A stretch of 64,000 nucleotides of DNA from Myxococcales bacterium (GTDB taxonomy: Bacteria; Desulfobacterota; Binatia; HRBIN30), in NCBI GenBank assembly GCA_037445065.1, contig JBBILD010000008.1:96001-160000 (forward strand), written 5' to 3'. This document shows, piece by piece, positions 35,018 through 60,136 of this stretch. The notes under the pieces are model-generated. The model searched no databases. It was given only the letters and a program-made list of their open reading frames with translations, and was not told the origin of the DNA. The translations under genes and the position numbers were made by a program. Each line of letters opens with the position of its first letter. Position 1 is the stretch's first letter.

Positions 35018-35053
35018 CGGTTGTTCCCTGCGGATCTCGGTCTCATGCCTGCG

Positions 35054-36694: not shown

Positions 36695-36754
36695 GAAGCC
36701 CACCAAGAAAAGCGGTTTTGCAGTTCGGCAAAGGCGGCCGGAACGGAGGATGAA

Positions 36755-40094: not shown

Positions 40095-40148
40095 GCGGTG
40101 ATTCGCCCGCCTTGACAGAATGCTGGGACCGAACAATCGCCAGGCTGT

Positions 40149-40208
40149 CCTGCCTAGTTACGACTGTGGCAGGCTCGAGGCGCCGAACACTGGCGCGTCG
40201 AGTGTTCG
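40149..40208. promoter_or_regulatory. Two inverted repeats in the glpD leader (possible operator or RNA structure)
   Basis: CCTGCC-TAGT-TACG-ACTG-TGGCAGG hairpin (40149-40173); CGAACACT-N9-AGTGTTCG (40184-40208). Confidence 0.35.
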
Positions 40209-40317
40209 CGATTGGGCGGCAAGCGGTCCGGCGAAGGGCAAAGAGCGAGAGTTCCGGTTGCCGCTGGGGCCGGCTTTGCGTTAGGAACTCTGTGCACGCA
40301 AAACCGAACCTAGCGCG

Positions 40318-41892: not shown

Positions 41893-41981
41893 CGCGCATG
41901 GCCGCCGCCGCACAGGCGCCCGTCATCCGGGTGGGTTGCGCCGGCCACCTCTGCGGCGAGCAACGAGAGGAGAGGGAAAGG

Positions 41982-43541
41982 ATGCGCCTGCCACGTGGAA
42001 GCGGGGTGCTGCTGCACCCGACAAGCTTGCCGGGTCCGTTTGGAATCGGTGATCTCGGGCCGGAGGCCCGCGCGTTTGTGGACGGGCTGGCGAGGGCCGG
42101 CCAGCAGTGGTGGCAAGTCCTTCCGCTCGGCCCCACTGGCTACGGCGACTCGCCCTATCAGTGCTTCTCGGCTTTTGCTGGCAATCCGCTGCTCATTGCC
42201 CCAGAAGAACTCATCGAGGAAGGCTGGCTCGAGCGTTCTGATCTGGAGCCGCTTCCTCCGTTCGTGGGGGGGCGTGTGGACTTCGAACGGTTGACGCCTT
42301 GGAAGCTTGCCTACTTACGGCGCGCCGCCCGCGGCTTCCTGCAGCGCGGTGGCGGAAACGCAGCTTCGGAGTTCGAGCGCTTTCGCCAGGAGCACGCGTT
42401 TTGGCTCGAGGACTTTGCCTTGTTCATGGCGCTGAAAGAAGCTCATGGAGGCGCAGTGTGGAGCGAATGGGAGCGGGATGTGGTGTGCCGGAAGGAACGG
42501 GCATTGGCGCGATGGCGGGGCGAGCTGGCCGCAGTGGTGGAGGAGTACAAGACCTTGCAGTTCTTCTTTTTCCGCCAGTGGCAGCGTTTGCGTGACTACG
42601 CTGCACATCGGGGTGTGCAACTGATTGGGGATGTGCCGATTTTCGTGGCGTACGACAGCGCGGATGTGTGGTGCGCTCCCGAACTGTTCTTCCTGGATAA
42701 ACAGAGGCATCCAACGGCAGTGGCTGGCGTTCCCCCGGATTATTTCAGTGCCACGGGGCAACTGTGGGGCAACCCGCTGTACCGATGGGAGCGGATGGCC
42801 GAAGATGGGTACCGGTGGTGGATCGCTCGGGTCCGCCACACCTTGGCGCTGGTTGATGTGGTGCGCATTGACCACTTTATCGGCTTTGTTCGTTACTGGG
42901 AAATCCCCGCCGGTGCTCCCACGGCTCAAACGGGGCGTTACGTTCCGGGGCCAGGGGCGGATTTCTTACAGGCATTGCAACGGGCGTTGGGTGGTTTGCC
43001 GCTGATTGCCGAGGATCTTGGCGCGGTCACACCGGAGGTGGAAGCGCTGCGCGATGCGTTCGCTCTGCCGGGAATGAAGGTGCTGCAGTTCGCCTTTGCG
43101 AGCGACGCCCACGATCGTTTCCTCCCTCATAACTTCACGCAGAATTTCGTGGTGTACACGGGCACTCACGACAACGACACCACGGTTGGCTGGTTCCAGA
43201 GCGCAAGCCCGCGAGAAAAACAGTTTGCCCTCCGATACTTGGGCCGAAGCGGCAAAGAGATCGCCTGGGAGCTGATTCGCTTGGGGATGTCATCGGTAGC
43301 GGACACCTTTGTGGTGCCAGCGCAAGACTTGCTCTCTTTGGCAAGTGAGGCGCGCATGAACTTTCCCGGTCGGCCCGAGGGCAACTGGGGGTGGCGTCTG
43401 CTCCCGGGGCAACTGGGCACGGCAGTTTGGGACCGGCTGGCCGATCTCACAGATGTGTATGGCCGAGCTCAGCCGGGCCCGAAGGCCCGGAAGGCAGGCT
43501 TGCCAGAGAACGGTTGCCCTCCTCCTGTGCTGCAAGCATAG
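41982..43541 (+). CDS. malQ: 4-alpha-glucanotransferase (GH77)
   Basis: 'GVLLHPTSLP', 'WQVLPLGP', 'GVPPDYFSATGQLWGNP', 'RIDHF', 'IAEDLG', 'YTGTHDNDT'. Confidence 0.96.
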   Translation: MRLPRGSGVLLHPTSLPGPFGIGDLGPEARAFVDGLARAGQQWWQVLPLGPTGYGDSPYQCFSAFAGNPLLIAPEELIEEGWLERSDLEPLPPFVGGRVDFERLTPWKLAYLRRAARGFLQRGGGNAASEFERFRQEHAFWLEDFALFMALKEAHGGAVWSEWERDVVCRKERALARWRGELAAVVEEYKTLQFFFFRQWQRLRDYAAHRGVQLIGDVPIFVAYDSADVWCAPELFFLDKQRHPTAVAGVPPDYFSATGQLWGNPLYRWERMAEDGYRWWIARVRHTLALVDVVRIDHFIGFVRYWEIPAGAPTAQTGRYVPGPGADFLQALQRALGGLPLIAEDLGAVTPEVEALRDAFALPGMKVLQFAFASDAHDRFLPHNFTQNFVVYTGTHDNDTTVGWFQSASPREKQFALRYLGRSGKEIAWELIRLGMSSVADTFVVPAQDLLSLASEARMNFPGRPEGNWGWRLLPGQLGTAVWDRLADLTDVYGRAQPGPKARKAGLPENGCPPPVLQA

Positions 43542-43548
43542 TCTGGCC

Positions 43549-44355
43549 ATGACCGAAGCTGGCGCAGCGGAAAAGGACACCGCCTCGCTTCTGGCTGCGG
43601 CGCAGGCGGGCGACCGTTCGGCCCTCGAACGGTTGCTGGCACGCTACCAAGGACACATTTTGCGCTTCGGGCTCAAAATGTGCCGCCACCCGGAAGATGC
43701 CCGCGACGTGGTGCAAGAAACGCTGGTGGCGGCGGCCCGCTCCATTGAGCAGTTCCGCGGCGAAGCCTCGCTCTCCACGTGGCTCTATCGAATTGCGCGC
43801 AGCTTCTGTGCCAAAAAGCGTCGCCGGCGCGAGCTGGGATCGCCAACGGATCGCAGCGAAGAACTCGAGCAGGCCACCGACGCCGTGGCCGAGAGTCCTG
43901 AGGAGCAGGTCGGCACGCGCCAACTCGTGGAAGCCCTCTACGCTGCCCTCGACCAGCTCGACCCAAAATACCGAGAGGTGTTTTTGCTGCGCGATGTCGA
44001 GGGACTGAGCGCCGCCCAGACGGCGAGCGTGCTCGGCTTGCAAGTCGCGACCGTGAAAACCCGCCTGCACCGTGCGCGACTGCAAGTTCGGGCTGCCCTT
44101 GCCCCTGTGCTGGGCCGATCCGAACGCCAGCACGGCTGCCCGGAGATCGCGCGCGTGTTTTCGCGCCACCTTGAGGGTGACTTGTCTCCTCAACTGTGCG
44201 CGAAAATGGAGCGGCACCTTCGCCAGTGCAAGAGCTGCCGCAACGAATGTGAATCTCTCCGTTTCCTCCTTGCGGCTTGCCGCGAACTGCCCGGCACCGA
44301 GGTTCCAGAAGACCTGGACCGCGCGGTGCGCACCGCGATTCGAGAGGTGGCCTGA
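43549..44355 (+). CDS. ECF sigma factor with fused C-terminal zf-HC2 (ZAS-like) domain
   Basis: Region 2 'DARDVVQET...FRGEASLSTWLYRIA', region 4 'REVFLLRDVEGLS...TVKTRLHRAR', then C...HLRQCKSC. Confidence 0.9.
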   Translation: MTEAGAAEKDTASLLAAAQAGDRSALERLLARYQGHILRFGLKMCRHPEDARDVVQETLVAAARSIEQFRGEASLSTWLYRIARSFCAKKRRRRELGSPTDRSEELEQATDAVAESPEEQVGTRQLVEALYAALDQLDPKYREVFLLRDVEGLSAAQTASVLGLQVATVKTRLHRARLQVRAALAPVLGRSERQHGCPEIARVFSRHLEGDLSPQLCAKMERHLRQCKSCRNECESLRFLLAACRELPGTEVPEDLDRAVRTAIREVA

Positions 44356-44443: not shown

Positions 44444-44472
44444 TGGACCGAGCCGGGCAAACTCGCTAGCGT
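44444..44472 (+). promoter_or_regulatory. Putative sigma70 promoter for the lipid head-group operon, probably leaderless
   Basis: TGGACC-17 nt-TAGCGT, 7 nt before in-frame GTG 44480; no SD. Confidence 0.4.
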
Positions 44473-44479
44473 GGCCCCT

Positions 44480-45220
44480 GTGCGTTTGGGCGGTATCACC
44501 TTCGACTTTGGCGGCACGCTAGATGCCGACGGGGAGCACTGGTGCGACCGCTTTGCTCGCCTGTACGGGGAAGTCGGCTGTAGGGTTGATCCCGCCCAGC
44601 TTCGCGCCGCGTTCGATGAAGCAACCCGCGCTGGCTACGCCGCCTCGGGGTTGCGGCATGCAAGCCTCTCCGAGCTAGTAGACTTCCACTTGCGCGCGCA
44701 GTGGAAGGCCTTGGGCTGGAAGTGGGGTGATTCCGCCCAAGCCATTGTTGTCCTCTTCCTGCAAGAGGCCCAGGCGTATCTTCAGCGTAACCGTGCCCTG
44801 TTGGAGCGCTTGCGGGGTCGCGTGCGGCTCGGGGTGATTTCGAATTTCTATGGAAACTTGCCACGCGTGCTCGAGGAGGCAGGAATGGCGTGCCTGTTCG
44901 ATAGCGTGCTCGACTCGACGATCGAGGGTTTTCGCAAGCCGGCTCCAGAAATCTTTGCTTTGGCTGCTGCTCGCTTGCAGGTAGCGCCCCGAGAACTCCT
45001 GCACATTGGCGACTCTCTCGAGCAGGATGTTTTCGCCGCCAAGCGCGCCGGGTTTCAAGCCGCCTGGCTGTGCGGCAACCAAGACAACACGGGTTGCCAG
45101 CGGCGCGAAGCAGACTGCGTGTTGCGCTCGCTCGAAGAGCTGATCCCCCTGGTGGAGCGTGCCGCCGTGCTTGACTCCCCGCACGGCAGCGCGGCCGTCC
45201 CCGTGCTTGGCCGGAGATGA
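44480..45220 (+). CDS. HAD-family hydrolase
   Basis: 'FDFGGTLD', 'ISNFYGN', 'KPAPEIF', 'HIGDSLEQD'; start GTG 44480 or 44471. Confidence 0.9.
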   Translation: MRLGGITFDFGGTLDADGEHWCDRFARLYGEVGCRVDPAQLRAAFDEATRAGYAASGLRHASLSELVDFHLRAQWKALGWKWGDSAQAIVVLFLQEAQAYLQRNRALLERLRGRVRLGVISNFYGNLPRVLEEAGMACLFDSVLDSTIEGFRKPAPEIFALAAARLQVAPRELLHIGDSLEQDVFAAKRAGFQAAWLCGNQDNTGCQRREADCVLRSLEELIPLVERAAVLDSPHGSAAVPVLGRR

Positions 45221-45924
45221 TTCAGCAGGCCGGGATCCTTGCTGCTGGGTTAGGAACGCGCTTGGTCCAGGACCGGGCGGCCGGGAAGCCAATGGTAGAG
45301 GTGCGGGGAAAGCCTTTGATCCATTACGTTGTTGCCGGGCTCGTCCAGGCTGGGGTGCGGCGCGTAGCCATGGTGCTCAATTCTCGCGGGCGAGCCGTCG
45401 AGGCGTACTGCCGGACAGCTTTTCCGCGTGTGGACTGGCGCATCGCCTATCATGACACTGCTCATTCCCTCGAAACGTTTCGTGCCCTACAGCCGCTCTT
45501 AGAGCGCCAGCGGTTCGTCTTGAGCATGGCGGACACTGTGCTGGCTCCGCGGGCACTGATCGCCTTCGTGAGCGAGGCGAGCGTGCGTTCTGAAACGATC
45601 ACGCTGGCGGTGACGGACTGGGTTGACGACGAAAAACCCTTGTGGGTTCGTTTCGATGCAAAAGGACGCGTAACAGCGCTTGGGCCTGAGGCGGCTGGCA
45701 GCGGTTGGGTGACGGCCGGGGTCTACGCCGTGGCCTCGGAGGTGTACTCCTGGCTCGACCGTTCTCAGGTAAGAAGCATGCATGGACTGAGTGAATTCTT
45801 TGCGTACTCGGTCAGAGTAGGGGCTGCTGTTCGCGCCATTCCGGTCGGCCAGGCGGTGGATGTGGACCGACCGGGAGACCTGGTGCAAGCAGAGCGCCTG
45901 CTTGAGCGACTGAAGCTGCCATGA
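45217..45924 (+). CDS. NTP transferase (nucleotidyltransferase)
   Basis: 'ILAAGLGTRL...KPMVEVRGKPLI', 'DDEKPLWV', 'VDVDRPGDL'; ATGA coupling at both ends. Confidence 0.9.
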   Translation: MIQQAGILAAGLGTRLVQDRAAGKPMVEVRGKPLIHYVVAGLVQAGVRRVAMVLNSRGRAVEAYCRTAFPRVDWRIAYHDTAHSLETFRALQPLLERQRFVLSMADTVLAPRALIAFVSEASVRSETITLAVTDWVDDEKPLWVRFDAKGRVTALGPEAAGSGWVTAGVYAVASEVYSWLDRSQVRSMHGLSEFFAYSVRVGAAVRAIPVGQAVDVDRPGDLVQAERLLERLKLP

Positions 45925-46733
45925 TTCCTGACTTTGTGTGCGTCTTGCGCGAGCCAGAGTTTTCTCCCGGACGCGTCGAAGATGATGCAGGGATCCTGCT
46001 TGCCGTTGCTAGTGTCCTGCGCAACCGGGGTTACACGGTGGAGCTCGTACAGGCACACGCACAGCGCTGGCCAAGGATCGGTACGGAAACGCTAGTGCTG
46101 TCTATGGCACAGGGCACGCCGGCTCTGGAGCGCCTCCGTGTTTGGGAAGTTGAGGGGGTACGGGTCATCAACTCGGTGAGCGCCGTGCAGAATTGCAGGC
46201 GAGCAGTTACCGACCGACTGCTGCGCCAGGGAGGCATTCCTCACCCTCCCACCCGCCTCCTTCCCTTGGACGCGCAAGTGTTGCCGACGGAGTGGTTTGC
46301 CTCGGGCGTATGGATCAAACGGGGCGACTTCCACGCCATGGCCGAGGGTGACGTGTCGTTGGTGCACTCCCCTGTGGAAGCAGACGCTGCGCTCGGGCGG
46401 CTGCGGGGGCGTGGCGTGGAGTACGCTGTGGTGCAGCAAAACGTGACCGGCCGAGTCGTGAAGTTCTATGTTGTGGCGGAGCAGTTCCTTTGCGTCACAG
46501 ATGGGGGGGTGCCGGTAGCGGTACAACGCAAGATTGGAACGCTCGCGCGCCGTGCGGCAGCGTTGCTCGGGCTAGAGGTGTTCGGCGGTGACTGCGTTGT
46601 GACGCAGGCCGGCGAGTGTCTCTTGATTGACTTGAACGACTGGCCTAGCTACGCCCGTTGCCGTCTTTCCGCAGCCGCGGCGATTGCCGCTTACGCGCAA
46701 GCAGAAAAGGGGAAGGGCTCGTCCCAAGAATAG
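45921..46733 (+). CDS. ATP-grasp fold protein
   Basis: 'RVINS', 'WIKRGD', 'VVQQNVTG..VKFY', 'LGLEVFGGD', 'LIDLNDWPSY'. Confidence 0.75.
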   Translation: MIPDFVCVLREPEFSPGRVEDDAGILLAVASVLRNRGYTVELVQAHAQRWPRIGTETLVLSMAQGTPALERLRVWEVEGVRVINSVSAVQNCRRAVTDRLLRQGGIPHPPTRLLPLDAQVLPTEWFASGVWIKRGDFHAMAEGDVSLVHSPVEADAALGRLRGRGVEYAVVQQNVTGRVVKFYVVAEQFLCVTDGGVPVAVQRKIGTLARRAAALLGLEVFGGDCVVTQAGECLLIDLNDWPSYARCRLSAAAAIAAYAQAEKGKGSSQE

Positions 46734-46744
46734 AGCCGAAGATC

Positions 46745-48079
46745 ATGACGCCTTTCGATTTCGTTCCAGGGCCGGGCTCGCGGCGAGTGGTTGAAGAGGA
46801 GCGGCTCTATCTCGCTCCGGGTGTGCAGCGCATTGCCTCGCTCTCTGGCTTGGTGTTCCATCGCGGCCGAGGGTGTACGCTCGAGGACGTGGATGGCAAC
46901 CGGTACCTGGACTTTTTTGCCGGTGTCGGGGTGGCAAGCTTGGGCCACAGTCACCCGCGCTTCGTTAGCGCCGTTCAGCGGCAGGTGGAGCGGTTGGTTG
47001 TCGGCAGCTTCACTTCGCAAGCCCGCGCTCGCCTCTTGCGCCTGTTGGCGGAACTAGGCCCGGGCAGGCTGCAGCGGTCCCAACTGTACAGTGGTGGTGC
47101 CGAGGCCGTAGAAGCAGCCATTCGGCTGGCGAAGTCGTACACGAAGAAATTCGAAGTGATTGGATTCTGGGGTGGTTTTCACGGGAAGACCGGTGGAGTC
47201 ATCGGCCTGATTGGCGATCCCTGGAAACAGCATTGGGGACCGTTGCCTCCCGGAACGCACTTGCTGCCGTACGCGGATTGTTACCGCTGCCCGTTCGACC
47301 TGCAGTACCCGAGCTGCGGTATGTTTTGCTTGGAGTTCGCACGCCGGGCCATCAAACGGAGCACTGCCGGAGCCGTTGCGGCCATTGTCGTCGAGCCGAT
47401 GCAAGGGACGGCGGGGAACGTGATTCCTCCGCCTGAGTTTCTGCCTGGCGTGGCGGAAATCGCGCGTGAGCACGATGCGGTGCTGATTTGCGACGAGATC
47501 ATTACCGGCTTTGGGCGTACGGGAACAATGTTCGCGTGCGAGCACACCGGGGTCGAGCCAGACGTAATGACGATCGGGAAGGGCTTCGGGAACGGCTTCC
47601 CGATCAGCGGCCTCATTGCCCGCGAGGAGGTTACGCAAGCAGAACCGTTCTCCAGACCGAGCGCCTCTTCTTCCAGCTACGGAGGGAATCCCCTGGCAGC
47701 CACCGCGGCCCTCGCGACGGTGGAAACCATCGTCGAAGAAAACTTGGTCACGCACGCCGCCCGGGTCGGCGAGCGGTTACTGAATGAGCTGCGAGCCCTG
47801 CAGGAAAAGTACCCCTTTGTCGGCGACGTGCGTGGCGCTGGGCTTCTTATCGGTCTGGACCTGGTGCGCGATCGGCGCAGTAAGGAGCCTTTGCCCGCCG
47901 AAGTAACCGAGTGGGTCTTCCTGCAGGCGCTGCAGCGGGGTTTGCTGTTTATGGGGTACTTCTCCCGCGTTCGCATCAATCCTCCGTTGGTTCTAACCGA
48001 GAGTGAGGCGCGCGACGGGGCGGCAATCTTGGACGAGGTGTTTGCTGAGTTGGAGCGGAGTGGGCGGCATCGCGCATGA
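46745..48079 (+). CDS. Class III PLP-dependent aminotransferase
   Basis: 'DVDGNRYLDF', 'GAEAVEAA', 'FHGKT', 'EPMQG', 'DEIITGFGRTG', 'GKGFGNG', 'YGGNPL'. Confidence 0.95.
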   Translation: MTPFDFVPGPGSRRVVEEERLYLAPGVQRIASLSGLVFHRGRGCTLEDVDGNRYLDFFAGVGVASLGHSHPRFVSAVQRQVERLVVGSFTSQARARLLRLLAELGPGRLQRSQLYSGGAEAVEAAIRLAKSYTKKFEVIGFWGGFHGKTGGVIGLIGDPWKQHWGPLPPGTHLLPYADCYRCPFDLQYPSCGMFCLEFARRAIKRSTAGAVAAIVVEPMQGTAGNVIPPPEFLPGVAEIAREHDAVLICDEIITGFGRTGTMFACEHTGVEPDVMTIGKGFGNGFPISGLIAREEVTQAEPFSRPSASSSSYGGNPLAATAALATVETIVEENLVTHAARVGERLLNELRALQEKYPFVGDVRGAGLLIGLDLVRDRRSKEPLPAEVTEWVFLQALQRGLLFMGYFSRVRINPPLVLTESEARDGAAILDEVFAELERSGRHRA

Positions 48080-49092
48080 CACGACGGCGGCGTGGGGCAC
48101 TGCTTGGCTTCGGAGAAATGGCGCGCCTGGGGCACTTGCCTGCCTGGAGGGAGCGGCCGGAGTTCGAACTGGTCGCGGTGGTTGACCCCAACCCGGAGCG
48201 ACTGGCATTGGCCCGGCAGGCCCTACCACACGCTCGGCCCTGCTCGACCTTGGAGGAATTGTGGGAGCACGGCCCCCTCGACTTCGTAGACATTGCTACG
48301 CCACCCACTTTCCACACCGCTATGGCCCGAGCTGCCCTCGATCGCGGGATCGCTGTTTTGTGCGAAAAGCCCTTGACGACGAATTTGACCGAATTCCTCG
48401 TGCTCGCGGCCATCAGCCGGAGCGGCGGTATTGCCCTCCACACGGTTCACAATTGGCGCCATTCGCCTGCGCAGCGGGCCGTTTCCGCGTTGTTGCAAAG
48501 CGGGCGTATCGGACGAGTGCGTCGCGCCGAAATCCGCGTCGAACGAGAAGGGTGTGCGGTGGGAAGCGCAGGTGACTGGCGCCTGCTGGGCGAGGTCGCG
48601 GGAGGGGGAATCCTCACCGATCACGGCTGGCATGCGTTCTATTTGGTCGCGGGGTGGTTGGGCGGCACCCCGCGATTCGTTCGCGCCTCGGCGGAGCAGC
48701 GGCGCTACCTCCATGCCGAGGTGGAAGATACGTCGCACTGCGTGATCGAGTTCCCGAGCGGAACGGCGGAGCTGCACCTCACTTGGGCTGCGTCACGACG
48801 CCACACAGCGTGGCGAATCGAAGGGGAGCGCGGGGAAATTCGAGTCGAGCAAGGGGTTTTGGTGCTCGAGGATGAGCGGGGGCGGATGCGGCGGCCAGTT
48901 GCGGGGCTGTCTGCTGGTTCCCATCACCCGGATTGGTTCGGCGCCGTCATCGAGGAGTTTCGTTCTGTCCTGGAGGACCCTACGCAGTCCAATTTAGAGC
49001 AGGCCGGCTGGTGCGTGGCTCTCCTGAGCCAGGCGTACCGCTCGATTCGTCAAGGGGGAGCCAGGGTGCCTGTGTCCCTGTCGCTCCCGTGA
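48076..49092 (+). CDS. Gfo/Idh/MocA family NAD(P)-dependent oxidoreductase
   Basis: 'GFGEMA', 'IATPP', 'LCEKPL', 'GGGILTDHGWH'. Confidence 0.92.
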   Translation: MTRRRRGALLGFGEMARLGHLPAWRERPEFELVAVVDPNPERLALARQALPHARPCSTLEELWEHGPLDFVDIATPPTFHTAMARAALDRGIAVLCEKPLTTNLTEFLVLAAISRSGGIALHTVHNWRHSPAQRAVSALLQSGRIGRVRRAEIRVEREGCAVGSAGDWRLLGEVAGGGILTDHGWHAFYLVAGWLGGTPRFVRASAEQRRYLHAEVEDTSHCVIEFPSGTAELHLTWAASRRHTAWRIEGERGEIRVEQGVLVLEDERGRMRRPVAGLSAGSHHPDWFGAVIEEFRSVLEDPTQSNLEQAGWCVALLSQAYRSIRQGGARVPVSLSLP

Positions 49093-49111
49093 GCGGGAAC
49101 GAGGAGTGGAC

Positions 49112-50299
49112 ATGGATCGCGCGGTGATTCTACCGCCCACGGAAGCTAGCTTTTGGCGCGTTGCGGGGCTCACGGTATTGGAACGGGTAATACGGACTGC
49201 CCAGCGCGCTGGTTTCCAGACGGTGGCGGTGTGGTTGCCGGAGGAGCGAGATCCCGCCCCGTGCGGGAGTGCCGAGCGCAATGCTCGACCTCTCTTGTCC
49301 GACGTCCGTCTCCAGCCAAAACCCCGATTGGATGACCATGTGTGGGTGCTTTTGCCGAGCGATGCAGTGTGGCCGGCTGCTACCTTACACGCTTTGCGTG
49401 GGTTGCCCCTGAACGGCGCCGTACAGGAGATCGAGCTTGCGCCGGGCGTGAGCGTGTGGGTCGGGCCCGGAAAGCAATTGACTCGCATCCTCGAGGGTTG
49501 CGAGCCTGCTCGCGCCGCAAAGCTTTTAAGTACGCTAGCCAGCGCAAAACTCTCTCTGCCCGACGGGGTAGGCGTGCGAGTCGCACAGCGCCGAGCCGTG
49601 GATCACGCCGAGCGCGTGCTGTGCGAACACATTCGCGGCCAGACGGCGGGGTCGGATGGTTTGCTGGCACGCTGGTTCGACCGCCGACTGTCGCTTTGGC
49701 TGAGCCGACAAATCGTTCGCTACACCTCGCTCCGCCCGAATCATATCACGCTGCTGGGCACCGCCGTGGGCTTGTTTGGGGCTGCTTTGCTGCTGCGTGG
49801 CGAGTACGCGAGCAATGTGCTGGGAACAGCGTTGTTCTGGCTGGCGACGGTGCTCGATGGATGCGACGGAGAGGTGGCTCGGCTCAAACTGAGCGAGTCG
49901 AAATTTGGGCAGGTGCTGGACGTGGCTACCGACAACCTCGTCCACGCGGCTGTGTTTCTCGGCCTGGGGTTGGGTTACGCCCGCGCGCAGCCGGAGGCCC
50001 CGTACGGGTGGCTCACGGTTTTGTTGCTCGGCGGCTTCGTCTGCGCTGGAGGTGCGAGCTACTTTGCGCTGGTGCGGCACCCCGAACTTTTTGTGGGGGA
50101 CCAGCGCCGTGCCTCGCGAACAGCCCGGATGCGAGCGGCTTTGCTGCAGGGACTCAAGGCGCTCATGACCCGGGATTTTGCGTATCTGCTTTTGCTTCTC
50201 GCTTTCCTCGACCGCTTGCATTGGTTCTTGTGGGGTGCAGCTTTCGGCACGTACGGTTTTTGTCTCCTGCTTTTGCTCCTCTACCGCTGGCGCCCTTGA
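49112..50299 (+). CDS. CDP-alcohol phosphotransferase with degenerate N-terminal NTP-transferase-like domain
   Basis: 'PNHITL' and signature 'DGCDGEVARLKLSESKFGQVLDVATD'; N-terminal 'VAGLTVLERVIR'. Confidence 0.9.
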   Translation: MDRAVILPPTEASFWRVAGLTVLERVIRTAQRAGFQTVAVWLPEERDPAPCGSAERNARPLLSDVRLQPKPRLDDHVWVLLPSDAVWPAATLHALRGLPLNGAVQEIELAPGVSVWVGPGKQLTRILEGCEPARAAKLLSTLASAKLSLPDGVGVRVAQRRAVDHAERVLCEHIRGQTAGSDGLLARWFDRRLSLWLSRQIVRYTSLRPNHITLLGTAVGLFGAALLLRGEYASNVLGTALFWLATVLDGCDGEVARLKLSESKFGQVLDVATDNLVHAAVFLGLGLGYARAQPEAPYGWLTVLLLGGFVCAGGASYFALVRHPELFVGDQRRASRTARMRAALLQGLKALMTRDFAYLLLLLAFLDRLHWFLWGAAFGTYGFCLLLLLLYRWRP

Positions 50300-50313
50300 G
50301 AGGTGGGCGAGCC

Positions 50314-51318
50314 ATGGGAGTACTGCGCTCGCGGAAATTCGAGGCGGCCTTTTTTCTCCTGGGCATCGCGTTGTTTGCCTGGCTGGCGCAGCGCTTTGGC
50401 TGGTCAACGCTCGTGGATGCGGTGCAACTCGCCGGCTGGGGTTTGCTGGCCGTTGTCGCGCAGGAGATCCTCGCGCATCTCTTGAACACGCTCGGCTGGT
50501 ATTTTGCGTTTGCCCGCACCAGCCGCCGCCCTCCGTTCTCCTCGATGCTCCTCGCCCGCATCGCGGGGGATGCCGCCAATTACCTTACCCCGACTGCGAC
50601 CCTGGGTGGTGAGTTTGTCCGCTTGCAACTGCTGCGGGATGCTACCCATGGCCGGGAGCTGGTGGCTTCGCTGGCGGTAGCGAAGTTGGCGCAAAGCGCG
50701 GGACAAGTGGTGTTTATTTCTGCCGGTGCCCTCGTGCTCCTGCCGGCCCTTGCACTCGATGCGAAGTGGTGGTGGACGATAGCTGCAACCATCGCGCTCA
50801 TGGCCGTAGCGTTGGCCGTGCTTTTGTGGTGGCAGCGGCGAGGTATGTTCACTTCGCTGGGAGGTTGGCTGGGACGCGCCAACCCTTTAGCGCGCGAGCG
50901 ATGGGACCGCCGCTTGGCTGTGCTCGACGCCGAAGTTAGCCGCGTGTACCAGGAGGCCGGGCTGCGCATGCCGCTTTCGGTGCTCGCCTTTGCTCTCGGT
51001 TGGGCGGCGGGCGTGATCGAGATGTACCTGATCCTCTGGTGTTTAGGATTGCCGGCAAGCTGGAGCCTCGCGCTGGCGATCGAGGTGCTCTCGGTGACCG
51101 TTGACGGTTTGCTCTTTTTTATTCCGGCCAAAATGGGTGCGCAGGAGGGGGGTAAGGCGTTGATCTTTGCCCTCTTGGGGCTGGACCCGAGCCGCGGCTT
51201 CTCTGCTGGCGTGCTGCGCCGAATTCGTGAACTGGTTTGGTCGGGCGTTGGCCTTGGCCTGTGGTGGCTCGTCCGCTGGCGGAACGGAGTGCAGGTCTCC
51301 GCGGCCAGTTTGGGGTAA
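50314..51318 (+). CDS. Lysylphosphatidylglycerol synthase TM / flippase-like protein (HpnL-like)
   Basis: Multi-TM; 'RIAGDAANYLTPTATLGGE', 'IPAKMGAQEGG', 'RRIREL'. Confidence 0.82.
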   Translation: MGVLRSRKFEAAFFLLGIALFAWLAQRFGWSTLVDAVQLAGWGLLAVVAQEILAHLLNTLGWYFAFARTSRRPPFSSMLLARIAGDAANYLTPTATLGGEFVRLQLLRDATHGRELVASLAVAKLAQSAGQVVFISAGALVLLPALALDAKWWWTIAATIALMAVALAVLLWWQRRGMFTSLGGWLGRANPLARERWDRRLAVLDAEVSRVYQEAGLRMPLSVLAFALGWAAGVIEMYLILWCLGLPASWSLALAIEVLSVTVDGLLFFIPAKMGAQEGGKALIFALLGLDPSRGFSAGVLRRIRELVWSGVGLGLWWLVRWRNGVQVSAASLG

Positions 51319-51327
51319 GGAGGGGGC

Positions 51328-52296
51328 TTGCTGCCAGCGAGTGTTGCAGCAGGGCGGGAACCCGCAGCGCGTCTCGGGCCGCAGCAGGCTCTTATCGTCT
51401 CTGCAGATGATTTTGGCCTCTCCCACGGCGTCAACGAGGCAGTCCGGCAGGCGCACTGCCACGGTGTGCTCACCAATGCGAGCCTGATGGTCAATGGCTC
51501 AGCGTTCGAGGAAGCGGTAGACATCGCGCACTCGCTGCCGAGCATGGGCGTGGGCTTGCACTTGGTGCTCTTGCAGGGGCGCGCAACCCTTACCGAACTC
51601 GACCTCCCAGGACTGATTTCTCGCGAGGGTTTCTTCCGGCAAGACCCGGTCCGTACCGGCTTGCTCTATTTTTTCGCAAAGCGCTTGCGCGACCAACTCG
51701 AAAGAGAAATCCGCGCTCAGCTCGAAAAGTTCCTGGCCAGCGGGCTCGCGTTGTCGCACGTTGACGGGCATTTGAACATCCACGTGCACCCAACGGTGCT
51801 GAGCATCCTTGTCAGCGTTGCGGCGGAGTACGGCATTCGCGCCCTGCGCCTGCCTAGGGAGCCTTTGCGGTTATCGCTGCGCGCTAACCACTCGCAACTG
51901 CTGCGCAAAGTGGTCGAGTCACTCACCTTTCGCGCGTTGTGCCGCCATGCGGCCAGGCGGCTCGACGAGCATCGGATCGCTTATCCCGATCAGCTTTTTG
52001 GGTTGCATCACTCGGGGCACATGACCGAATCGTACCTGCGGGTGATGACCGAGAGCCTGCCGCCAGGAGTGACCGAAATCTACACGCATGCTTCGCGGGT
52101 GGACGACGAGGCAGCCCGTTGGCGTCCGCGGGACTACGAGTGTGAAGGCGAGCTGCAAGCTTTGCTCAGTGCGCAACTAAAACAGCAGATCCAAGACCGT
52201 GGCATCGCGCTGATCACGTACCGGGATCTGCCGCGACTTCGGGGGGCGGAGCAGAACGAGACTCGGTCGCCGTCGCAAGCAACGCTGCTCCGCTAA
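51328..52296 (+). CDS. hpnK: Hopanoid-associated deacetylase HpnK (YdjC/ChbG family)
   Basis: 'SADDFGL', 'GVLTNASLMV', 'GLHLVL', 'EIRAQ', 'HVDGHLNIHVHP'; near hpnJ. Confidence 0.85.
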   Translation: MLPASVAAGREPAARLGPQQALIVSADDFGLSHGVNEAVRQAHCHGVLTNASLMVNGSAFEEAVDIAHSLPSMGVGLHLVLLQGRATLTELDLPGLISREGFFRQDPVRTGLLYFFAKRLRDQLEREIRAQLEKFLASGLALSHVDGHLNIHVHPTVLSILVSVAAEYGIRALRLPREPLRLSLRANHSQLLRKVVESLTFRALCRHAARRLDEHRIAYPDQLFGLHHSGHMTESYLRVMTESLPPGVTEIYTHASRVDDEAARWRPRDYECEGELQALLSAQLKQQIQDRGIALITYRDLPRLRGAEQNETRSPSQATLLR

Positions 52297-53086
52297 TGGC
52301 CAAAACGAAGGCCAGCAGGCGATAACTTGCCTCTGGCTGCTGTGGGGGAAGACGCTCGCCGAGCACGACCAAACCAGCGACGATGGGCAACATGTCGGAA
52401 AGAACTGTGAGGATCGGCACCACCACCACACCGCGCCCGTGCTGCAGTGCTGACTGCATCAGGGAAAAGCCGGCGACATTGGTAACGATAGTCAGCCAAA
52501 GAGCTGAGCTACGCAGCACCTCGGCCAAGGACGGCGCCACCGCCAGGAGTTTCGCAAAAAGCCCTGAGAGACCGAGGATCAGACCCGCCGCGATCGAGTA
52601 CCCTACGGGCCGCCCCGGCCGCGAATCGAGCCCGAATGCCAGCGTGGCAAGCAACACTTGAGTCGCGACGAACCACCACAAACCTCGCGGTGCGGTCGGG
52701 AGCACCGGCTCGTCGTCCAAGGAAAGCCCGAACAAGACCAAGGCCACGGTGATCGAGAGGGCTCCGAGCCACTCCCGTTTCCCCGCCGACTCGCCGAGCA
52801 GCGAAACTGCCAAGAGCAGGAACAGGACCAGCCCCCCGCTCAAAGCAGTGTGGACGAGGGACAGAGGAGCGAAGCGGAGCACGGCAAGATAGAGTCCGTA
52901 CCCAAGCGCTTGCAGGGCGACTCCCCAGAGCCAGGCAGGGTTGCGCAAGAAAGCCGCCCACGATCGGAACCGTAGGCCACCCGCCAGTTCCGGCATCTTT
53001 GGTGCCTCGCGCTTCATCAGGTAGAGGCCGCAACTCAGAAAAGCGCTGGCTACGGCGGCAAGAAACAGGGCGAGTTGCGGGCTCAT
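52214..53086 (-). CDS. DMT/EamA-like membrane transporter
   Basis: About 9 TM helices, 'APLSLVH', 'LLGES', 'VLGERLP'; downstream of hpnJ; 3' end overlaps hpnK by 83 nt. Confidence 0.75.
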   Translation of the reverse strand: MSPQLALFLAAVASAFLSCGLYLMKREAPKMPELAGGLRFRSWAAFLRNPAWLWGVALQALGYGLYLAVLRFAPLSLVHTALSGGLVLFLLLAVSLLGESAGKREWLGALSITVALVLFGLSLDDEPVLPTAPRGLWWFVATQVLLATLAFGLDSRPGRPVGYSIAAGLILGLSGLFAKLLAVAPSLAEVLRSSALWLTIVTNVAGFSLMQSALQHGRGVVVVPILTVLSDMLPIVAGLVVLGERLPPQQPEASYRLLAFVLAISGAALLATATESRSAPPPEVAADPGT

Positions 53087-53188
53087 GCGTGCAGTCGGGC
53101 CGAGCTGTTGCAAAACTCCTGCAGAGCTGCCCCCGGGGCCAATGTTCCGTTCGGGGAGGGGTGAGCAACCAGGTGAGGAGTCAAGCGG

Positions 53189-54622
53189 TCAGGCAGATGC
53201 TGCCGGCTCCCGCCTCTGGGCAAAGAAGGAGAAAAACTCGCGCGCCTCGCGCAAGCGGCGAACCATCACTTTGCGGTCTTTGAGCATGTCCTTCATAATC
53301 CGCAGAATCGGCCGCGGGCGCAGGTAAAACGCCTTGTAAAAATGCTCGAGCGCCTCGTGCATTTCCTGCGACGAGAGTTCTGGGTAGTTCAGAACCGCTT
53401 GCTGGATACCGTGGTCTTCTACGAGTCCGTCTTCTCGATCCGGCGGTAGCCAGCCTTTTTCCTTCGCCTGACGGTACAACTCCGTTCCCGGATACGGGGC
53501 AGCCAGGGACACCTGCAAGCTGTACGGGTCGAGTTCCTTGGCGAACTCGAGGGTGCGCGCGATGGTTTCTGGCGTCTCGCCCGGCAGGCCAATGATAAAC
53601 GTGCCGTGCACCAAGATGCCGAGCTTATGGCAATCGCGCATGAATTCGCGCGCGCGGTCCACCCGCGTGCCTTTGCGGATATTGTTCAAGATGTGTTGGT
53701 TCCCGGTTTCGAAGCCAACCAAGAGCAGCCGCAGCCCATTGTCCTTGAGCACCTTGAGCGTTTCGTACGGGACGTTTGCTTTCGCGTTGCAGGACCATGT
53801 GATCCCTAGTTTCCCGAGGCCGCGCGCGATTGCCTCGGCGCGCGGGCGATCATCGGTAAAGGTGTCGTCGTCGAAAAAGAACTCCCGCACCTGAGGAAAA
53901 ATCTCTTTGGCGTGCGCCATCTCAGCGATCACGTGCTCGGCGCTGCGGGTGCGGTAGACGTGCCCGGCGATCGTTTGTGGCCACAAGCAAAAGCTGCATT
54001 TGCTCCGGCAGCCGCGCCCGGTGTACAAGGACACGTACGGGTGCTGCAAATAACCAATGTAGTAGTTCTCGATGACGAGGTGCTTTTTGTACACGTCCAC
54101 CACGAACGGGAACGCATCTAGGTCGTGGATGGGCGGCCGAGTCGGGGTGCGCCGGATCTCCGTTCCCTCGCGGTACGCCAATCCGGCCACGTTCTGGTAG
54201 GGCTGGCCTTCGGCGATGTCGCGGATCACGTAGTCGAATTCGCCGAGCGTGACAAAGTCCACCGCAGGAGCCACCTGCAGTGTCTGCTCAGGAAGCACCA
54301 TGGTGTGGGCGCCGACAAAGCCGATCACGGCGTGCGGGTACGCCTCTTTGAGGGCGGCCGCGACTTTGGCGTCGGACCGCAACGATGGCGTAGAGGTGTG
54401 GATGACGATCAAATCGTGGCCAGCCGCGCGCTGAATGACTTCTTCCAAGCCGAGTTCGTGCGGCGGTGCATCAATCAACGTACTGTCGGGAAGCAGCGAT
54501 GCAGCCTGGGCAAGCCAAGTCGGGTACCAGAAGGAACGGACTTCGCGCCGCGCCTGGTAGCGCGACCCAGCCCCGCCGTCGAAATGGTCGAACGACGGTG
54601 GGTTCAAGAACAACGTTTTCAT
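53189..54622 (-). CDS. hpnJ: Hopanoid biosynthesis radical SAM protein HpnJ
   Basis: N-terminus 'MKTLFLNPPSFDHFDGGAGSRYQARREVRSFWYPTWLAQ', CxxxCxxC 'CRSKCSFCLWPQT', 'FFDDDTF'. Confidence 0.93.
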   Translation of the reverse strand: MKTLFLNPPSFDHFDGGAGSRYQARREVRSFWYPTWLAQAASLLPDSTLIDAPPHELGLEEVIQRAAGHDLIVIHTSTPSLRSDAKVAAALKEAYPHAVIGFVGAHTMVLPEQTLQVAPAVDFVTLGEFDYVIRDIAEGQPYQNVAGLAYREGTEIRRTPTRPPIHDLDAFPFVVDVYKKHLVIENYYIGYLQHPYVSLYTGRGCRSKCSFCLWPQTIAGHVYRTRSAEHVIAEMAHAKEIFPQVREFFFDDDTFTDDRPRAEAIARGLGKLGITWSCNAKANVPYETLKVLKDNGLRLLLVGFETGNQHILNNIRKGTRVDRAREFMRDCHKLGILVHGTFIIGLPGETPETIARTLEFAKELDPYSLQVSLAAPYPGTELYRQAKEKGWLPPDREDGLVEDHGIQQAVLNYPELSSQEMHEALEHFYKAFYLRPRPILRIMKDMLKDRKVMVRRLREAREFFSFFAQRREPAASA

Positions 54623-54655
54623 CGCCACAGCATCACCCCGTTTCCAGGCCGCTGC

Positions 54656-54684
54656 ACAGTAACCGAGCCCACCTGCACGATCAA
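54656..54684 (-). promoter_or_regulatory. Putative sigma70 promoter of hpnJ
   Basis: TTGATC-17 nt-TACTGT on the minus strand, about 33 nt upstream of the ATG. Confidence 0.55.
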
Positions 54685-54930: not shown

Positions 54931-55740
54931 ATGGCAAAAGCGACGGTTTTGGCGCTTACCGCCGGAGCGGTGATGTGGCTGACGTTCCTTGGCCACTCTG
55001 CGCGCGCGCAAAGCAAGTTTGCGGGGCTAGTTGAAACGCGGCGCGTGGAGGTGGATGCAAACACGTTGGTTCGCGTTCTGGGTGGAGTTGCCGGGGATCC
55101 GGTGCAAGTGTTCAGCTTGCCGAGTGAGCGGATCGTGCGCCTGAAAGAGCAGGGAGATCCCGGGGTGCAAGTCAAGGAAGAAGTCTTCCGTGTGCGAGAC
55201 GGTGTTGTTCGCGCAGATGTACCCTGGCGGAACGGGCCTTCGTTTGTCCTGATCCGCGTTGGTCAGGACGTTATGGAATGGGTCCATCCCGGGGAACGCA
55301 CTGTGATCCAGTGGCGCAAACCGCCCATTTTGCGCCAGCTCACGCCGAGCCCGACTCCCGCGTTACAACCCTTGCAGCGAACGGTTTCGCTGGGGGGCCT
55401 CGAGGCCGAAGGCTACCAGCTCAAGCGAGGAAGCGAGATCGCCTGGGTGTGGATTGCTCGCTCGCCTGCAGGCCTGGCGGAAATCGCGAAAGCCGTGGCC
55501 GCCTTATCGCAGGCAATCAAACCGGAAGCGGAGCGCGTGGACGATTTTGCAATACGGGCCGCTTCTGCGATCGGATTTCCGGCCCGTGTGCAGGCGTGGA
55601 CTGCGCGTGGCTACACCTTGTACGAAGTGGTGCGCGTGGAGCCGAAGGAACAACCCGCGGAGGATTTTGCGGCGCCGCGGGACTTTCGCCGCGTGTCTAC
55701 GGGCGATCTCCAAGGCGAGAAAGAGAGCCGACAGCCGTGA
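54931..55740 (+). CDS. Secreted protein, DUF4412-like
   Basis: Signal peptide ending ARA, beta-rich body, C-terminal 'EQPAEDFAAPRDFRRV'. Confidence 0.6.
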   Translation: MAKATVLALTAGAVMWLTFLGHSARAQSKFAGLVETRRVEVDANTLVRVLGGVAGDPVQVFSLPSERIVRLKEQGDPGVQVKEEVFRVRDGVVRADVPWRNGPSFVLIRVGQDVMEWVHPGERTVIQWRKPPILRQLTPSPTPALQPLQRTVSLGGLEAEGYQLKRGSEIAWVWIARSPAGLAEIAKAVAALSQAIKPEAERVDDFAIRAASAIGFPARVQAWTARGYTLYEVVRVEPKEQPAEDFAAPRDFRRVSTGDLQGEKESRQP

Positions 55741-56573
55741 GCGAGGGGCGTGCAGCCTGGGAGATTTTCGCGCCGGATTTATTCCGTGGCCACACCGCAC
55801 TGGTAACGGGTGGTGGCCGCGGCATTGGTCGGGCAATCGCCCATGGTTTTGCCAAGTACGGCGCAAACGTCGTGATTGCTGCCCGCAACCCTGAAAACCT
55901 CGAGCGGACACGAGCGGAACTGGAAGCGATGGGAGTCGGTTGCCTGGCGGTGCCAGCCAACATCCGCGAAGTGCAGCAAGTGGAAGAGTTGGTGCAACGA
56001 ACGCTCGAGCGCTTCGGTGCGATCGATTACTTGGTCAATAACGCTGGAGGGCAGTTCCCGGCGCGGCCACAGGAAATCAGCGACCGTGGTTGGCGGGCGG
56101 TTGTAGACCTCAACCTCAACGGTACGTGGAACATGTGCAGCCGAGTCGGGCCCCACATGCTGGCGCGGGGGAAGGGCGCGGTGGTGAACATCGTGCACAT
56201 TTATTCGTTCGAGCGCGGCGCCCCGGCTTTCGCCCACTCGGGGGCAGCCAGAGCCGGGGTGGTCAACCTCACCCGCTCTTTGGCTTATTACTGGGCCCGG
56301 CGCGGAGTGACGATCAACGCCTTGGCCCCAGGCACAGTTTCGACCCGGGGTCTCCGCGAAGAGGAATTCAGCCGCGCGGAAGTGAGCGATTACGAGGCAT
56401 TGGCGGTCCGCGACATCCCAGCGCACCGCTTGGCGGAGCCCGAGGAAATCGCCGCGGCGGTGTTGTTTCTCTGCTCGCCCGCAGCCCGTTACATTAACGG
56501 TTCGGTGCTGGTCGTGGACGGGGCCTTGTCCTTGAGCAATTGGACTCCGCTCTTCGACCCAGAAACGTTTTGA
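55737..56573 (+). CDS. SDR oxidoreductase (2,4-dienoyl/trans-2-enoyl-CoA reductase or AtuB-like)
   Basis: 'TGGGRGIG', 'NNAGGQF', 'HSGAARAG' replacing YxxxK; GTGA overlap with upstream gene. Confidence 0.88.
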   Translation: MSEGRAAWEIFAPDLFRGHTALVTGGGRGIGRAIAHGFAKYGANVVIAARNPENLERTRAELEAMGVGCLAVPANIREVQQVEELVQRTLERFGAIDYLVNNAGGQFPARPQEISDRGWRAVVDLNLNGTWNMCSRVGPHMLARGKGAVVNIVHIYSFERGAPAFAHSGAARAGVVNLTRSLAYYWARRGVTINALAPGTVSTRGLREEEFSRAEVSDYEALAVRDIPAHRLAEPEEIAAAVLFLCSPAARYINGSVLVVDGALSLSNWTPLFDPETF

Positions 56574-56799
56574 AGGAACCCTGCCGGCCGCCGTCTTGGT
56601 TGGGGTGCTTCGTCGCCAGAGCGCTGCGGGCCCGAGAAGGTTCTGCGCACAGAGCCTGGCACGCTCACGATCGGCGGCGAGCAGGCTAGCGCCGTCATGC
56701 CACGGACCCCCGCGCTAAGCTTTGGTTGTTTTCGGGGCCCCTGACTCTGGCGAAGAGGTAACGCAGCGCCTAACCCCAGGCGAACTCCCGGAGGTGCCC

Positions 56800-57438
56800 A
56801 TGAGTGAGATTGATCAATTGTTCACCAACAACCGCCGCTGGGCGCGGCAACTGACCGATCGAGATCCTGACTTTTTCTTGAGGCTTTCTCGCCAGCAAGC
56901 GCCGCCGTATTTGTGGATCGGTTGCGCCGATTCGCGCGTTCCGGCCAATGAGATTGTCGGCCTCTTGCCCGGCGAGCTGTTCGTGCACCGCAACGTAGCC
57001 AATATCGTCCTGCACGCGGATGTGAACTGCCTTTCTGTTCTGCAGTACGCGGTCGAGGTGTTGCGCGTCCGGCACATTATCGTCTGCGGCCATTATGGCT
57101 GCGGCGGCGTTGCGCACGCCATGGGCCATGGAGAGCTGGGCCTGATCGACAACTGGCTGCGCTGTATCAAGGACTTGTACGAGAGGAACCTGCAGGAACT
57201 CGAAAAGCTCGAACCACAGGCGCGCTTGCGGCGGCTGTGCGAACTCAACGTCGCGCAGCAGGTGCGCAACGTAGCGCACACCACGATTGTTCAAAGAGCC
57301 TGGCTCGATGGCCGCTCGCTGGCCGTGCACGGCTGGATTTACGACATCGCCGATGGCCTGCTCCATGACCTTGGTGTGAGTATTGCGGGCCTGGATCAGC
57401 TTTCCTCTATCTACCGACTCCAACCGCCGAATGCGTGA
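56800..57438 (+). CDS. can: Beta-class carbonic anhydrase
   Basis: 'WIGCADSRVP', 'FVHRNVAN', 'CGHYGCGGV', 'HGWIY'. Confidence 0.95.
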   Translation: MSEIDQLFTNNRRWARQLTDRDPDFFLRLSRQQAPPYLWIGCADSRVPANEIVGLLPGELFVHRNVANIVLHADVNCLSVLQYAVEVLRVRHIIVCGHYGCGGVAHAMGHGELGLIDNWLRCIKDLYERNLQELEKLEPQARLRRLCELNVAQQVRNVAHTTIVQRAWLDGRSLAVHGWIYDIADGLLHDLGVSIAGLDQLSSIYRLQPPNA

Positions 57439-57455
57439 AACAGCAACCGCCCGGC

Positions 57456-57483
57456 TTGCCCGAAGGCGCCGGCTGGGTATGAT
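57456..57483 (+). promoter_or_regulatory. Putative sigma70 promoter for the HMGS-like/thiolase/P450 genes
   Basis: TTGCCC-16 nt-TATGAT followed by an AGGAGG RBS. Confidence 0.55.
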
Positions 57484-57517
57484 GCGAAGCATCAACGAGG
57501 CAGGAGGGAACTGACGC

Positions 57518-58903: not shown

Positions 58904-58939
58904 GCGAAGCCGCTGGCAAGCAGAAAGAGGAGGCAGCCA

Positions 58940-60115: not shown

Positions 60116-60136
60116 GGCTTTGCGAGGGAGCCTGCA

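Follow-up and report, generated by a model that had tools for sequence, protein, structure and literature searches.

We analysed a 64,000-nucleotide stretch of DNA (the window) from a Binatia bacterium deposited as Myxococcales bacterium (GenBank assembly GCA_037445065.1, contig JBBILD010000008.1, positions 96,001 to 160,000 of the forward strand), focusing on an operon at window positions 44444..54684. The names of homologues and the Atlas taxa agree with Candidatus Binatia. We consider it probable that this operon makes an inosamine (amino-deoxy-inositol) phosphate head group in the cytoplasm and that the head group is then transferred, in the manner of the Kennedy pathway, to a membrane lipid. 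The observations behind this reading are the genes themselves, their folds and intact catalytic motifs, their co-occurrence across genomes and residue covariation; from these we infer every activity, the order of steps, the position on the ring and the acceptor.

In the proposed pathway, the inositol-phosphate synthase Ino1 would supply inositol phosphate, from which a HAD-family phosphatase would release free inositol. A Gfo/Idh/MocA dehydrogenase would oxidise one ring hydroxyl to give an inosose, and a class III aminotransferase would convert this to inosamine. An ATP-grasp protein, predicted to resemble the inositol phosphate kinase ITPK1 and to accept the aminated ring in its Gln64 form, would phosphorylate the inosamine, and a nucleotidyltransferase (NTP transferase) would turn inosamine phosphate into CDP-inosamine. 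An AF2299-like CDP-alcohol phosphotransferase could then join inosamine phosphate by a phosphodiester to a lipid alcohol, and an HpnL-like protein would flip or hand on the product. The resulting head group would be zwitterionic and about 0.984 Da lighter than phosphoinositol, an alternative to the aminoethylphosphonate head group predicted for relatives.

The operon and its relatives

The interval contains the eight + strand genes and, facing them, the hpnJ-DMT pair. The first-pass annotation had described tight coupling, with three ATGA overlaps and all other gaps below 20 nt, and the junction coordinates bear this out: the overlaps lie at the HAD/NTP transferase, NTP transferase/ATP-grasp and aminotransferase/dehydrogenase junctions, and the remaining gaps are 11, 13, 14 and 9 nt, the 13-nt gap being measured to GTG 49106 (19 nt to ATG 49112). 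The family names given there also stand, by Pfam and NCBIfam profile matches and, for the ATP-grasp protein, by the predicted fold. We compared 60 Binatia relatives, 42 with the ATP-grasp gene and 18 without. The aminotransferase was present in 41 of the 42 (in the other it is frameshifted) and in none of the 18, and the full eight-gene order was found in 14 of the 20 relatives' loci fetched (one of the 14 frameshifted), which indicates that the arrangement is more than chance. A scan of GTDB gave at least 597 relatives, of which 80 loci were used; one genome in these counts (G072) is unpublished. The aminotransferase is present in 46 of these 80 loci and absent from 32, the remaining 2 being undecided. 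It stands directly behind the ATP-grasp gene in 45 of the 46, and Ino1 lies inside the operon in 11 of them, which supports inositol as the substrate. The first-pass annotation had staked its reading on the aminotransferase and dehydrogenase being conserved with the rest, and in both comparisons they are.

Ino1 was present in 33 of the 38 aminotransferase-bearing genomes searched. As had been noted, the window itself holds no inositol-phosphate synthase; a profile search of the genome located one 5.4 kb past the window end on the same contig, ~15 kb from hpnJ, and in one relative (G008) Ino1 follows directly behind the genes upstream of hpnJ. The aminotransferase and dehydrogenase add-on occurs in about ten phyla, the aminated version being found in Binatia, Syntrophobacteraceae, Myxococcota, Verrucomicrobiota, Ignavibacteria and Thermoanaerobaculia, and further in Gemmatimonadota, Methylomirabilota, Bdellovibrionales and one betaproteobacterial bin. 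A locus titled Bifidobacterium (L140) has genes that group with Verrucomicrobiota and betaproteobacterial rows and is probably mis-binned.

The version without the aminotransferase is the "alternative" inositol-lipid cluster of gut Bacteroidota. According to the accessible text of Heaver et al. 2022 (PMC9246714), Phocaeicola (Bacteroides) vulgatus and Prevotella veroralis, which were assigned this cluster, make inositol-phosphoceramide, the genes being unconfirmed; the cluster was proposed as an alternative CDP-inositol route with the HAD protein as ceramide transferase, and that text does not mention the ATP-grasp gene. The Phocaeicola/Prevotella cluster likewise has an NTP transferase, a CDP-alcohol phosphotransferase, a HAD protein and an LPG-synthase-type gene near the synthase (MIPS). 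Five window genes match it, the Phocaeicola order being NTP transferase, ATP-grasp, CDP-transferase, flippase, HAD (L109), which appears to fit the locus-tag gaps in the accessible part of that paper. The suspected kinship is supported by window-built profiles, which match the Bacteroidota NTP transferase at ~200 bits and HAD at ~175 bits, the CDP-transferase matching at family level only (~45 bits). The window operon differs in its added aminotransferase and dehydrogenase, in Gln64 instead of Arg and in the lack of a clear serine palmitoyltransferase (SPT) in the genome, and its transferase belongs to a different, ~400-aa AF2299-like clade. Our verdict is that the operon works like a Kennedy-type CDP-head-group pathway and is a relative of the Bacteroidota cluster, not a member of it by transferase clade. 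In environmental Bacteroidales (L092, L103, L138), a true SPT, a HisC-like aminotransferase and second CDP- and NTP transferases lie upstream of the core cluster.

Two characterised systems share parts of the proposed chemistry. In the IPCT/DIPPS system and in CDP-inositol-dependent ether lipid synthesis (Jorge et al. 2015, as summarised in the accessible text of PMC9246714, which also gives the signature motif), a cyclitol phosphate is activated with CTP and a phosphodiester is then formed by a CDP-alcohol phosphotransferase; the operon differs from IPCT/DIPPS in its extra phosphatase, kinase-like, redox and aminotransferase steps, in its flippase and in scores far below the cut-off. In hygromycin A synthesis, a synthase (MIPS), a phosphatase, a Gfo/Idh/MocA inositol dehydrogenase and an aminotransferase (Hyg18/Hyg25/Hyg17/Hyg8) lead to neo-inosamine (PMC10949010, accessible part), the same chemical logic by gene families as proposed here up to inosamine; that route yields an antibiotic building block and has no CDP activation or lipid transfer.

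Alignments show intact catalytic residues in all enzymes of the set. The HAD-family phosphatase (44471..45220 or from 44480, + strand; PF00702) starts at an in-frame GTG, 44444 not being a start codon; D12, G14, G15, T16, S124, K156, D181 and D186 are conserved in at least 90% of 88 rows, and the enzyme is predicted to free inositol from inositol phosphate. Its motif I reads DxGGT in at least 90% of the rows, the usual second Asp being missing. The NTP transferase (45217..45924, +; PF12804/PF00483) conserves the GxGxRL...K motif, matches the IPCT/DIPPS model NF041135 weakly (41.4 bits, cut-off 580) and is predicted to be a CTP:(amino)inositol-phosphate cytidylyltransferase, and the CDP-activated head group that had been suggested is supported. 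In the aminotransferase (46745..48079, +; PF00202, Aminotran_3), which is 47-76% identical across phyla, K279, D250, E217 and R410 are invariant in 54 rows; it is predicted to act on an inosose. In the NAD-dependent dehydrogenase (48076..49092, +; PF01408, GFO_IDH_MocA), Lys98 of the EKP motif, Asp182 and His186 are invariant in 49 rows, and the iolG model gives 58.6 bits (cut-off 355); we predict an inositol dehydrogenase.

The CDP-alcohol phosphotransferase (49106..50299, +; PF01066, CDP-OH_P_transf) has a degenerate N-terminal nucleotidyltransferase-like domain and, at residues 249-274, the full DxxDGxxAR...GxxxDxxxD motif, which is found in 31 of 31 AF-type rows. Its best PDB matches are AF2299 (2.4e-19) and IPCT/DIPPS (3.8e-11), and it does not pass the NF041135 cut-off (72.4 bits against 580). 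The putative flippase (50314..51318, +; PF03706, LPG_synthase_TM) scored 157.5 bits with the HpnL model TIGR03476 (177 in one relative), below the cut-off of 195.65, and we therefore call this LPG-synthase-type membrane protein HpnL-like only; its counterpart in the Bacteroidota cluster gave 99.6 bits. The function of HpnL is stated as unknown in the accessible part of 10.1101/2025.07.29.667474.

The ATP-grasp protein and its residue 64

The ATP-grasp protein (45921..46733, +), to which the first-pass annotation had given no role, had no Pfam match at 1e-3, but its predicted model (pLDDT 95) has an ATP-grasp fold, and the evidence points to a cyclitol kinase. In a profile search with the catalytic (C-terminal) half, the top six PDB matches were all ITPKs (E 8e-6 to 1.6e-3), the first ligase following at 0.01. 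The KFY, GxD and DxN.xPS/G motifs are common to the protein and the ITPKs, at about 15-18% identity to ITPK1. The Pfam family PF05770 (Ins134_P3_kin) gave 12.7 bits, below the gathering score of 23, and was matched at E <= 0.1 by 9 of 86 members (best 4e-4). The KFY lysine of AtITPK4 is matched in the alignments by K181, which is invariant; the inositol-phosphate contacts of human ITPK1 are H167, K199 and R212, whose His/Arg region falls outside these alignments. The fold search, in which ITPK1 (2qb5) aligned over 248 residues with Z 18.0 and rmsd 3.6, could not tell kinase from ligase, and the clusters returned by the Atlas were unnamed, apart from one with 16% RimK. Inositol monophosphates are substrates of ITPK1, and the family, known from human, plant, Entamoeba and Asgard archaea, shares the ATP-grasp fold, the KFY lysine, GxD, DxN.xP(S/G)(Y/F) and a genomic link to inositol-phosphate synthase, Asgard homologues flanking the synthase genes (PMC6900528, accessible part). 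The window protein differs in being shorter and in its predicted action on free or aminated inositol destined for lipid; from its sequence, we predict an ITPK1-like cyclitol kinase.

Across 1,088 alignment columns of four proteins, we contrasted loci that have the aminotransferase with loci that do not. In the 63 loci with it, residue 64 of the ATP-grasp protein was Gln in 60 and Glu in 3; of the 32 loci lacking it, 30 had Arg and 2 had Glu. Among the top-ranked columns, this residue alone tracked all four exceptions that nest within kin carrying the aminotransferase, none of the four having Gln; no aminotransferase orthologue was found elsewhere in these four genomes, one of which (G099) has a 380-bit intermediate match. 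The tree requires at least 4 changes at this residue, Arg changing at least four times. No top-ranked column of the NTP transferase, HAD or flippase tracked the aminotransferase, the CDP-transferase being outside this comparison.

For a held-out set, 120 further loci were read, and 79 with and 11 without the aminotransferase were retained after removal of 10 loci belonging to training genomes, 16 truncated by contig ends, 2 in which the N-terminal portion was missing and 2 duplicate views. Counting the single or aminotransferase-adjacent copy, the 79 loci had 69 Gln and 10 Glu and never Arg, and the 11 had 5 Arg, 1 Lys, 2 Glu and 3 Gln; this set includes near-copies of training loci, which lowers its weight. 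In four held-out loci an Arg copy stands upstream of a Gln copy that adjoins the aminotransferase, with one NTP transferase and one CDP-transferase shared between them. These tandem paralogues lie at L312:7671-9330 and L313:9854-11505 and in L272 and L278; G327 and G255 are among the genomes with such pairs, and G255 has a separate Arg-type cluster without the aminotransferase (L314) besides its tandem copies. Single readings of the residue include Arg in L306_651 and Glu in L231.

In the model, residue 64 sits in a loop that follows a strand of the N domain; the ERCVS loop of LysX aligns here, and the loop may be equivalent to the K59 selectivity loop of ITPK1. That this residue follows the presence of the aminotransferase suggests that amination comes before a kinase step; the simplest reading of the pattern is that the enzyme binds the ring and that the ring is aminated first.

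Competing explanations

Other readings of the same genes have to be weighed. The product might be a compatible solute, a soluble, aminated counterpart of di-myo-inositol phosphate formed by joining the head group to another polyol phosphate; we regard this as unlikely. The two closest solved transferases and the best NCBIfam match, the IPCT/DIPPS model, though far under its cut-off, fit this, as does the near-identical DNA found in subsurface and hot-spring metagenomes; most loci, however, carry a flippase-type gene, an inositol lipid is made by gut Bacteroidota that carry the core set and are mesophilic, and the same ATP-grasp/NTP transferase/HAD core recurs with lipid-transport neighbours. 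We give a similarly low probability to a scheme in which amination comes later or acts on something else, be it a sugar phosphate, CDP-inositol or the finished lipid, and in which the ATP-grasp protein handles plain inositol phosphate. The inosose aminotransferases of streptomycin type are of another class, the dehydrogenase matches are spread over sugar and cyclitol dehydrogenases, and one relative has no Ino1, all of which would suit such a scheme, but it leaves unexplained why residue 64 changes with the aminotransferase while columns of the NTP transferase, HAD and flippase do not, why tandem Arg/Gln pairs make do with one NTP transferase and one CDP-transferase, and why Ino1 sits inside 11 aminotransferase-bearing operons.

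Somewhat less probable still is that the ATP-grasp protein is a ligase acylating the new amine, or another one, to give an N-acyl or aminoacyl inosamine head group. Its top structural matches are ArgX/LysX, RimK and Ddl (LysX/RimK ligases at Z 21.8, ahead of ITPK1), the best PDB match of the full-length profile is the ligase PsnB (9e-7), followed by six ITPK sequences, and the gene directly precedes the aminotransferase; yet 32 loci without the aminotransferase retain it with its invariant residues unchanged, and it has the metal motif DxN, like ITPK, against ExN in PsnB. We find it very improbable that the aminotransferase and dehydrogenase merely sit in the operon as hopanoid side-chain enzymes, the one standing in for HpnO and the other being the missing ribosylhopane reductase. 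The adjoining hpnK and hpnJ would suit this, as would the accessible text of PMC12583986, in which the enzyme forming bacteriohopanetetrol (BHT) is unknown and HpnO is an aminotransferase. An HpnO enzyme would be expected only in hopanoid producers, whereas for 16 of the 38 genomes with orthologues of the window aminotransferase the search found no shc (all eight of Ignavibacteria type and three Gemmatimonadota among them), the dehydrogenase being present there too, and both genes also occur in G004, a relative without shc. The aminotransferase is absent from operon-less relatives that keep hpnK, and no HpnO model appeared among the best 25 of 69 NCBIfam matches. Nor was shc found in a further 11 genomes of the class Ignavibacteria that have the ATP-grasp gene. 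Amination thus has no need of hopanoids.

Several points weigh against the inosamine head group that we favour. By whole fold and by full-length profile, the ligase matches above precede the kinase ones, and one of the closest solved relatives of the CDP-transferase makes a soluble solute. No enzyme of the set has been characterised. PDB sequence searches pointed to no substrate for the aminotransferase or dehydrogenase, neither of which has a close characterised relative, and gave no close solved relative of the latter, so that their substrate rests on gene context. Ino1 occurs in 54 of the 60 relatives irrespective of the operon and is uninformative across Binatia, and G004, a 100% complete genome of the same family, keeps six of the seven operon genes with no Ino1 found. 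One of the eight CDP-alcohol transferases in the genome is PIP-synthase-like with a flippase of its own, another likely user of the Ino1 product. At residue 64, the three held-out Gln loci belong to genomes without any aminotransferase orthologue, contrary to a strict rule, and Glu occurs both with and without the aminotransferase.

The lipid acceptor and the hopanoid genes

In this genome, we rate diradylglycerol and a hopanepolyol about equally likely as acceptor. Ceramide, which the first-pass annotation had also named, is unlikely here, because the profile search of the genome found no clear SPT, only a BioF-level match. Outside Bacteroidota the SPT survey was ambiguous, with intermediate scores of 470-595 bits and a Verrucomicrobiota neighbour scoring equally as BioF and SPT. 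Across loci, the lipid-handling neighbours of the cassette include MlaE/MlaD, HpnN-like proteins and sphingolipid desaturase. Next to the aminated cassette of Verrucomicrobiota (L114:13041-19072, L088), which holds both CDP-transferase clades, lie genes for a fatty acid hydroxylase, a sphingolipid desaturase and an SPT/BioF-like protein.

In the tree of CDP-transferases, the Bacteroides-type rows fall on one side of a long branch (SH-aLRT 100) and the window enzyme on the other. Genes of the hpn series were found within 10 kb in 9 of 19 loci of the AF2299-like type and in none of 48 loci of the Bacteroides type, a comparison confounded because lineages without shc account for most of the 48 (five are from genomes with it). 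The arrangements near the AF2299-like type comprise hpnK/hpnJ in Binatia; hpnJ upstream and hpnN-like/hpnI genes downstream of the cassette in Syntrophobacterales (G067, G193); hpnJ-K-I-like genes in one myxococcal bin; and hpnC/D-like genes in another bin. All 17 further cassette-bearing Syntrophobacterales have shc, as do 27 of the 38 Binatia with the operon; a named strain, Desulfoferrobacter suflitae DRH4 (L067), carries both the aminated cassette and shc. In the other 11 Binatia shc was not found; five of these were checked, all with hpnI and three with hpnH, and their hpnH regions are compatible with loss or an assembly gap. G004, which lacks shc, hpnH, hpnI and hpnK, is missing only the transferase from the operon, a paralogue of which lies elsewhere; as one case, it cuts both ways on a hopanoid acceptor. 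Several Myxococcota-like bins and G055 (L074, L078, L089, L104, L111, L051) carry, along with the cassette, a second AF2299-like transferase paralogue on a long branch.

The genome holds a hopanoid pathway. Its shc gene (806 bits, cut-off 431) lies on contig C1, where hpnH passes its cut-off and hpnCD-, hpnE- and hpnG-like genes stand beside shc; a true hpnI is on contig C2 (427.8 bits, cut-off 310). On C1, a mevalonate-pathway block (decarboxylase, kinases, type-2 isomerase-like gene, HMG-CoA reductase) leads straight into shc (L004:6302-18706), followed by a fused hpnC-hpnD-like gene, hpnE, hpnG and hpnH. The PIP-synthase-like gene and its LPG-synthase-type flippase (L187:5503-7479, contig C2) lie ~4 kb from hpnI.

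HpnI, HpnK and HpnJ form the route to BHT cyclitol ether (PMC12583986 and PMC13459092, accessible parts), which needs none of the seven operon genes, and hpnI-K-J is complete in the absence of the operon. The hpnK gene (51328..52296, +; TIGR03473, 331 bits > 232.6) encodes the deacetylase from BHT-GlcNAc to BHT-glucosamine, and hpnJ (53189..54622, - strand, start ATG 54622; TIGR03471, 745 bits > 577.6), a radical SAM enzyme gene, is the only hpnJ copy in the genome. A part for HpnK and HpnJ in the present pathway, as first suggested, is not supported: the true hpnI is elsewhere, 11 of the 18 relatives without the operon have hpnK over cut-off, and G055 has the operon but neither hpnI nor hpnK. 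HpnK is probably a co-oriented neighbour and not a head-group step. The DMT-family membrane protein gene (52214..53086, -; NF038012, 44 bits, below the cut-off of 50) travels with hpnJ, standing beside it in 6 of 20 loci; it is convergent with hpnK, their 3' ends overlapping by 83 nt. Comparing L038, L039, L040 and L045, hpnJ at the same position was 80-91% identical in some family members and ~50% in others, which suggests that it was replaced in place within the family, both clades scoring over the HpnJ cut-off. A dedicated second HpnJ clade was considered and rejected, as both clades pass and this genome has one copy.

Relatives may obtain an amine-bearing head group in another way. PepM-like genes occurred in 9 of the 18 relatives without the operon and in 3 of 43 with it, counts in which only 3 of the 12 pass the cut-off and kin are not independent. 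In eight loci, PepM and a decarboxylase stand with an NTP transferase and a sister AF2299-like transferase, in most cases together with a class V aminotransferase; seven of the eight also have the flippase. The phosphonate genes of G027, G030, G057 and G059 lie next to hpnK, hpnJ, hpnI or an hpnN-like gene. The loci L143, L145, L149 and L170, from Binatia without the inositol operon, show the aminoethylphosphonate cassette beside such genes. Either cassette, it seems, could provide a CDP-activated head group with an amine, one taking the place of the other. More tentatively, the AF2299-like transferase might cap bacteriohopanepolyols through a phosphodiester with interchangeable amine-bearing or inositol head groups, the HpnL-like protein moving the phospho-hopanoids; the head group could then be inosamine phosphate here and plain inositol phosphate or aminoethylphosphonate in relatives, which we put forward with the same reserve. 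Bacteriohopanepolyols can resist extraction (PMC5462960, accessible part).

The flanks of the operon (35021-44355, 55278-62157) hold ordinary metabolism genes, among them pgi-gnd-zwf-pgl, glpD, malQ, an ECF sigma factor fused to a zinc anti-sigma finger, SDR, carbonic anhydrase, a thiolase/OB-fold pair, P450 and thrH. Promoter and terminator scans of the stretch gave results no different from shuffle expectations. Contigs from four other public DNA runs cover parts of the stretch, none spanning all of it, and no RNA dataset was listed among the matching runs.

The literature search, from which subscription journals were mostly outside coverage, found no description of an inosamine lipid or of a phosphonate- or inositol-capped hopanoid. 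The operon predicts a nitrogen-bearing inositol phospholipid head group, of which we found no description, across many phyla of soil, sediment and hot springs. It would supply the missing ATP-grasp kinase, as predicted, for the inositol-lipid route of common gut Bacteroidota, and it suggests that ITPK1-like inositol kinases are widespread in bacteria. If the acceptor is a hopanepolyol, HpnL would gain a role, and a class of phosphodiester-capped hopanoids would become relevant to biomarker work. In that case a new hopanoid class would extend over Binatia, Syntrophobacterales and some members of the Myxococcota and Acidobacteriota, its supply depending on a bacterial family of ITPK1-like kinases with a one-residue switch between inositol and inosamine.

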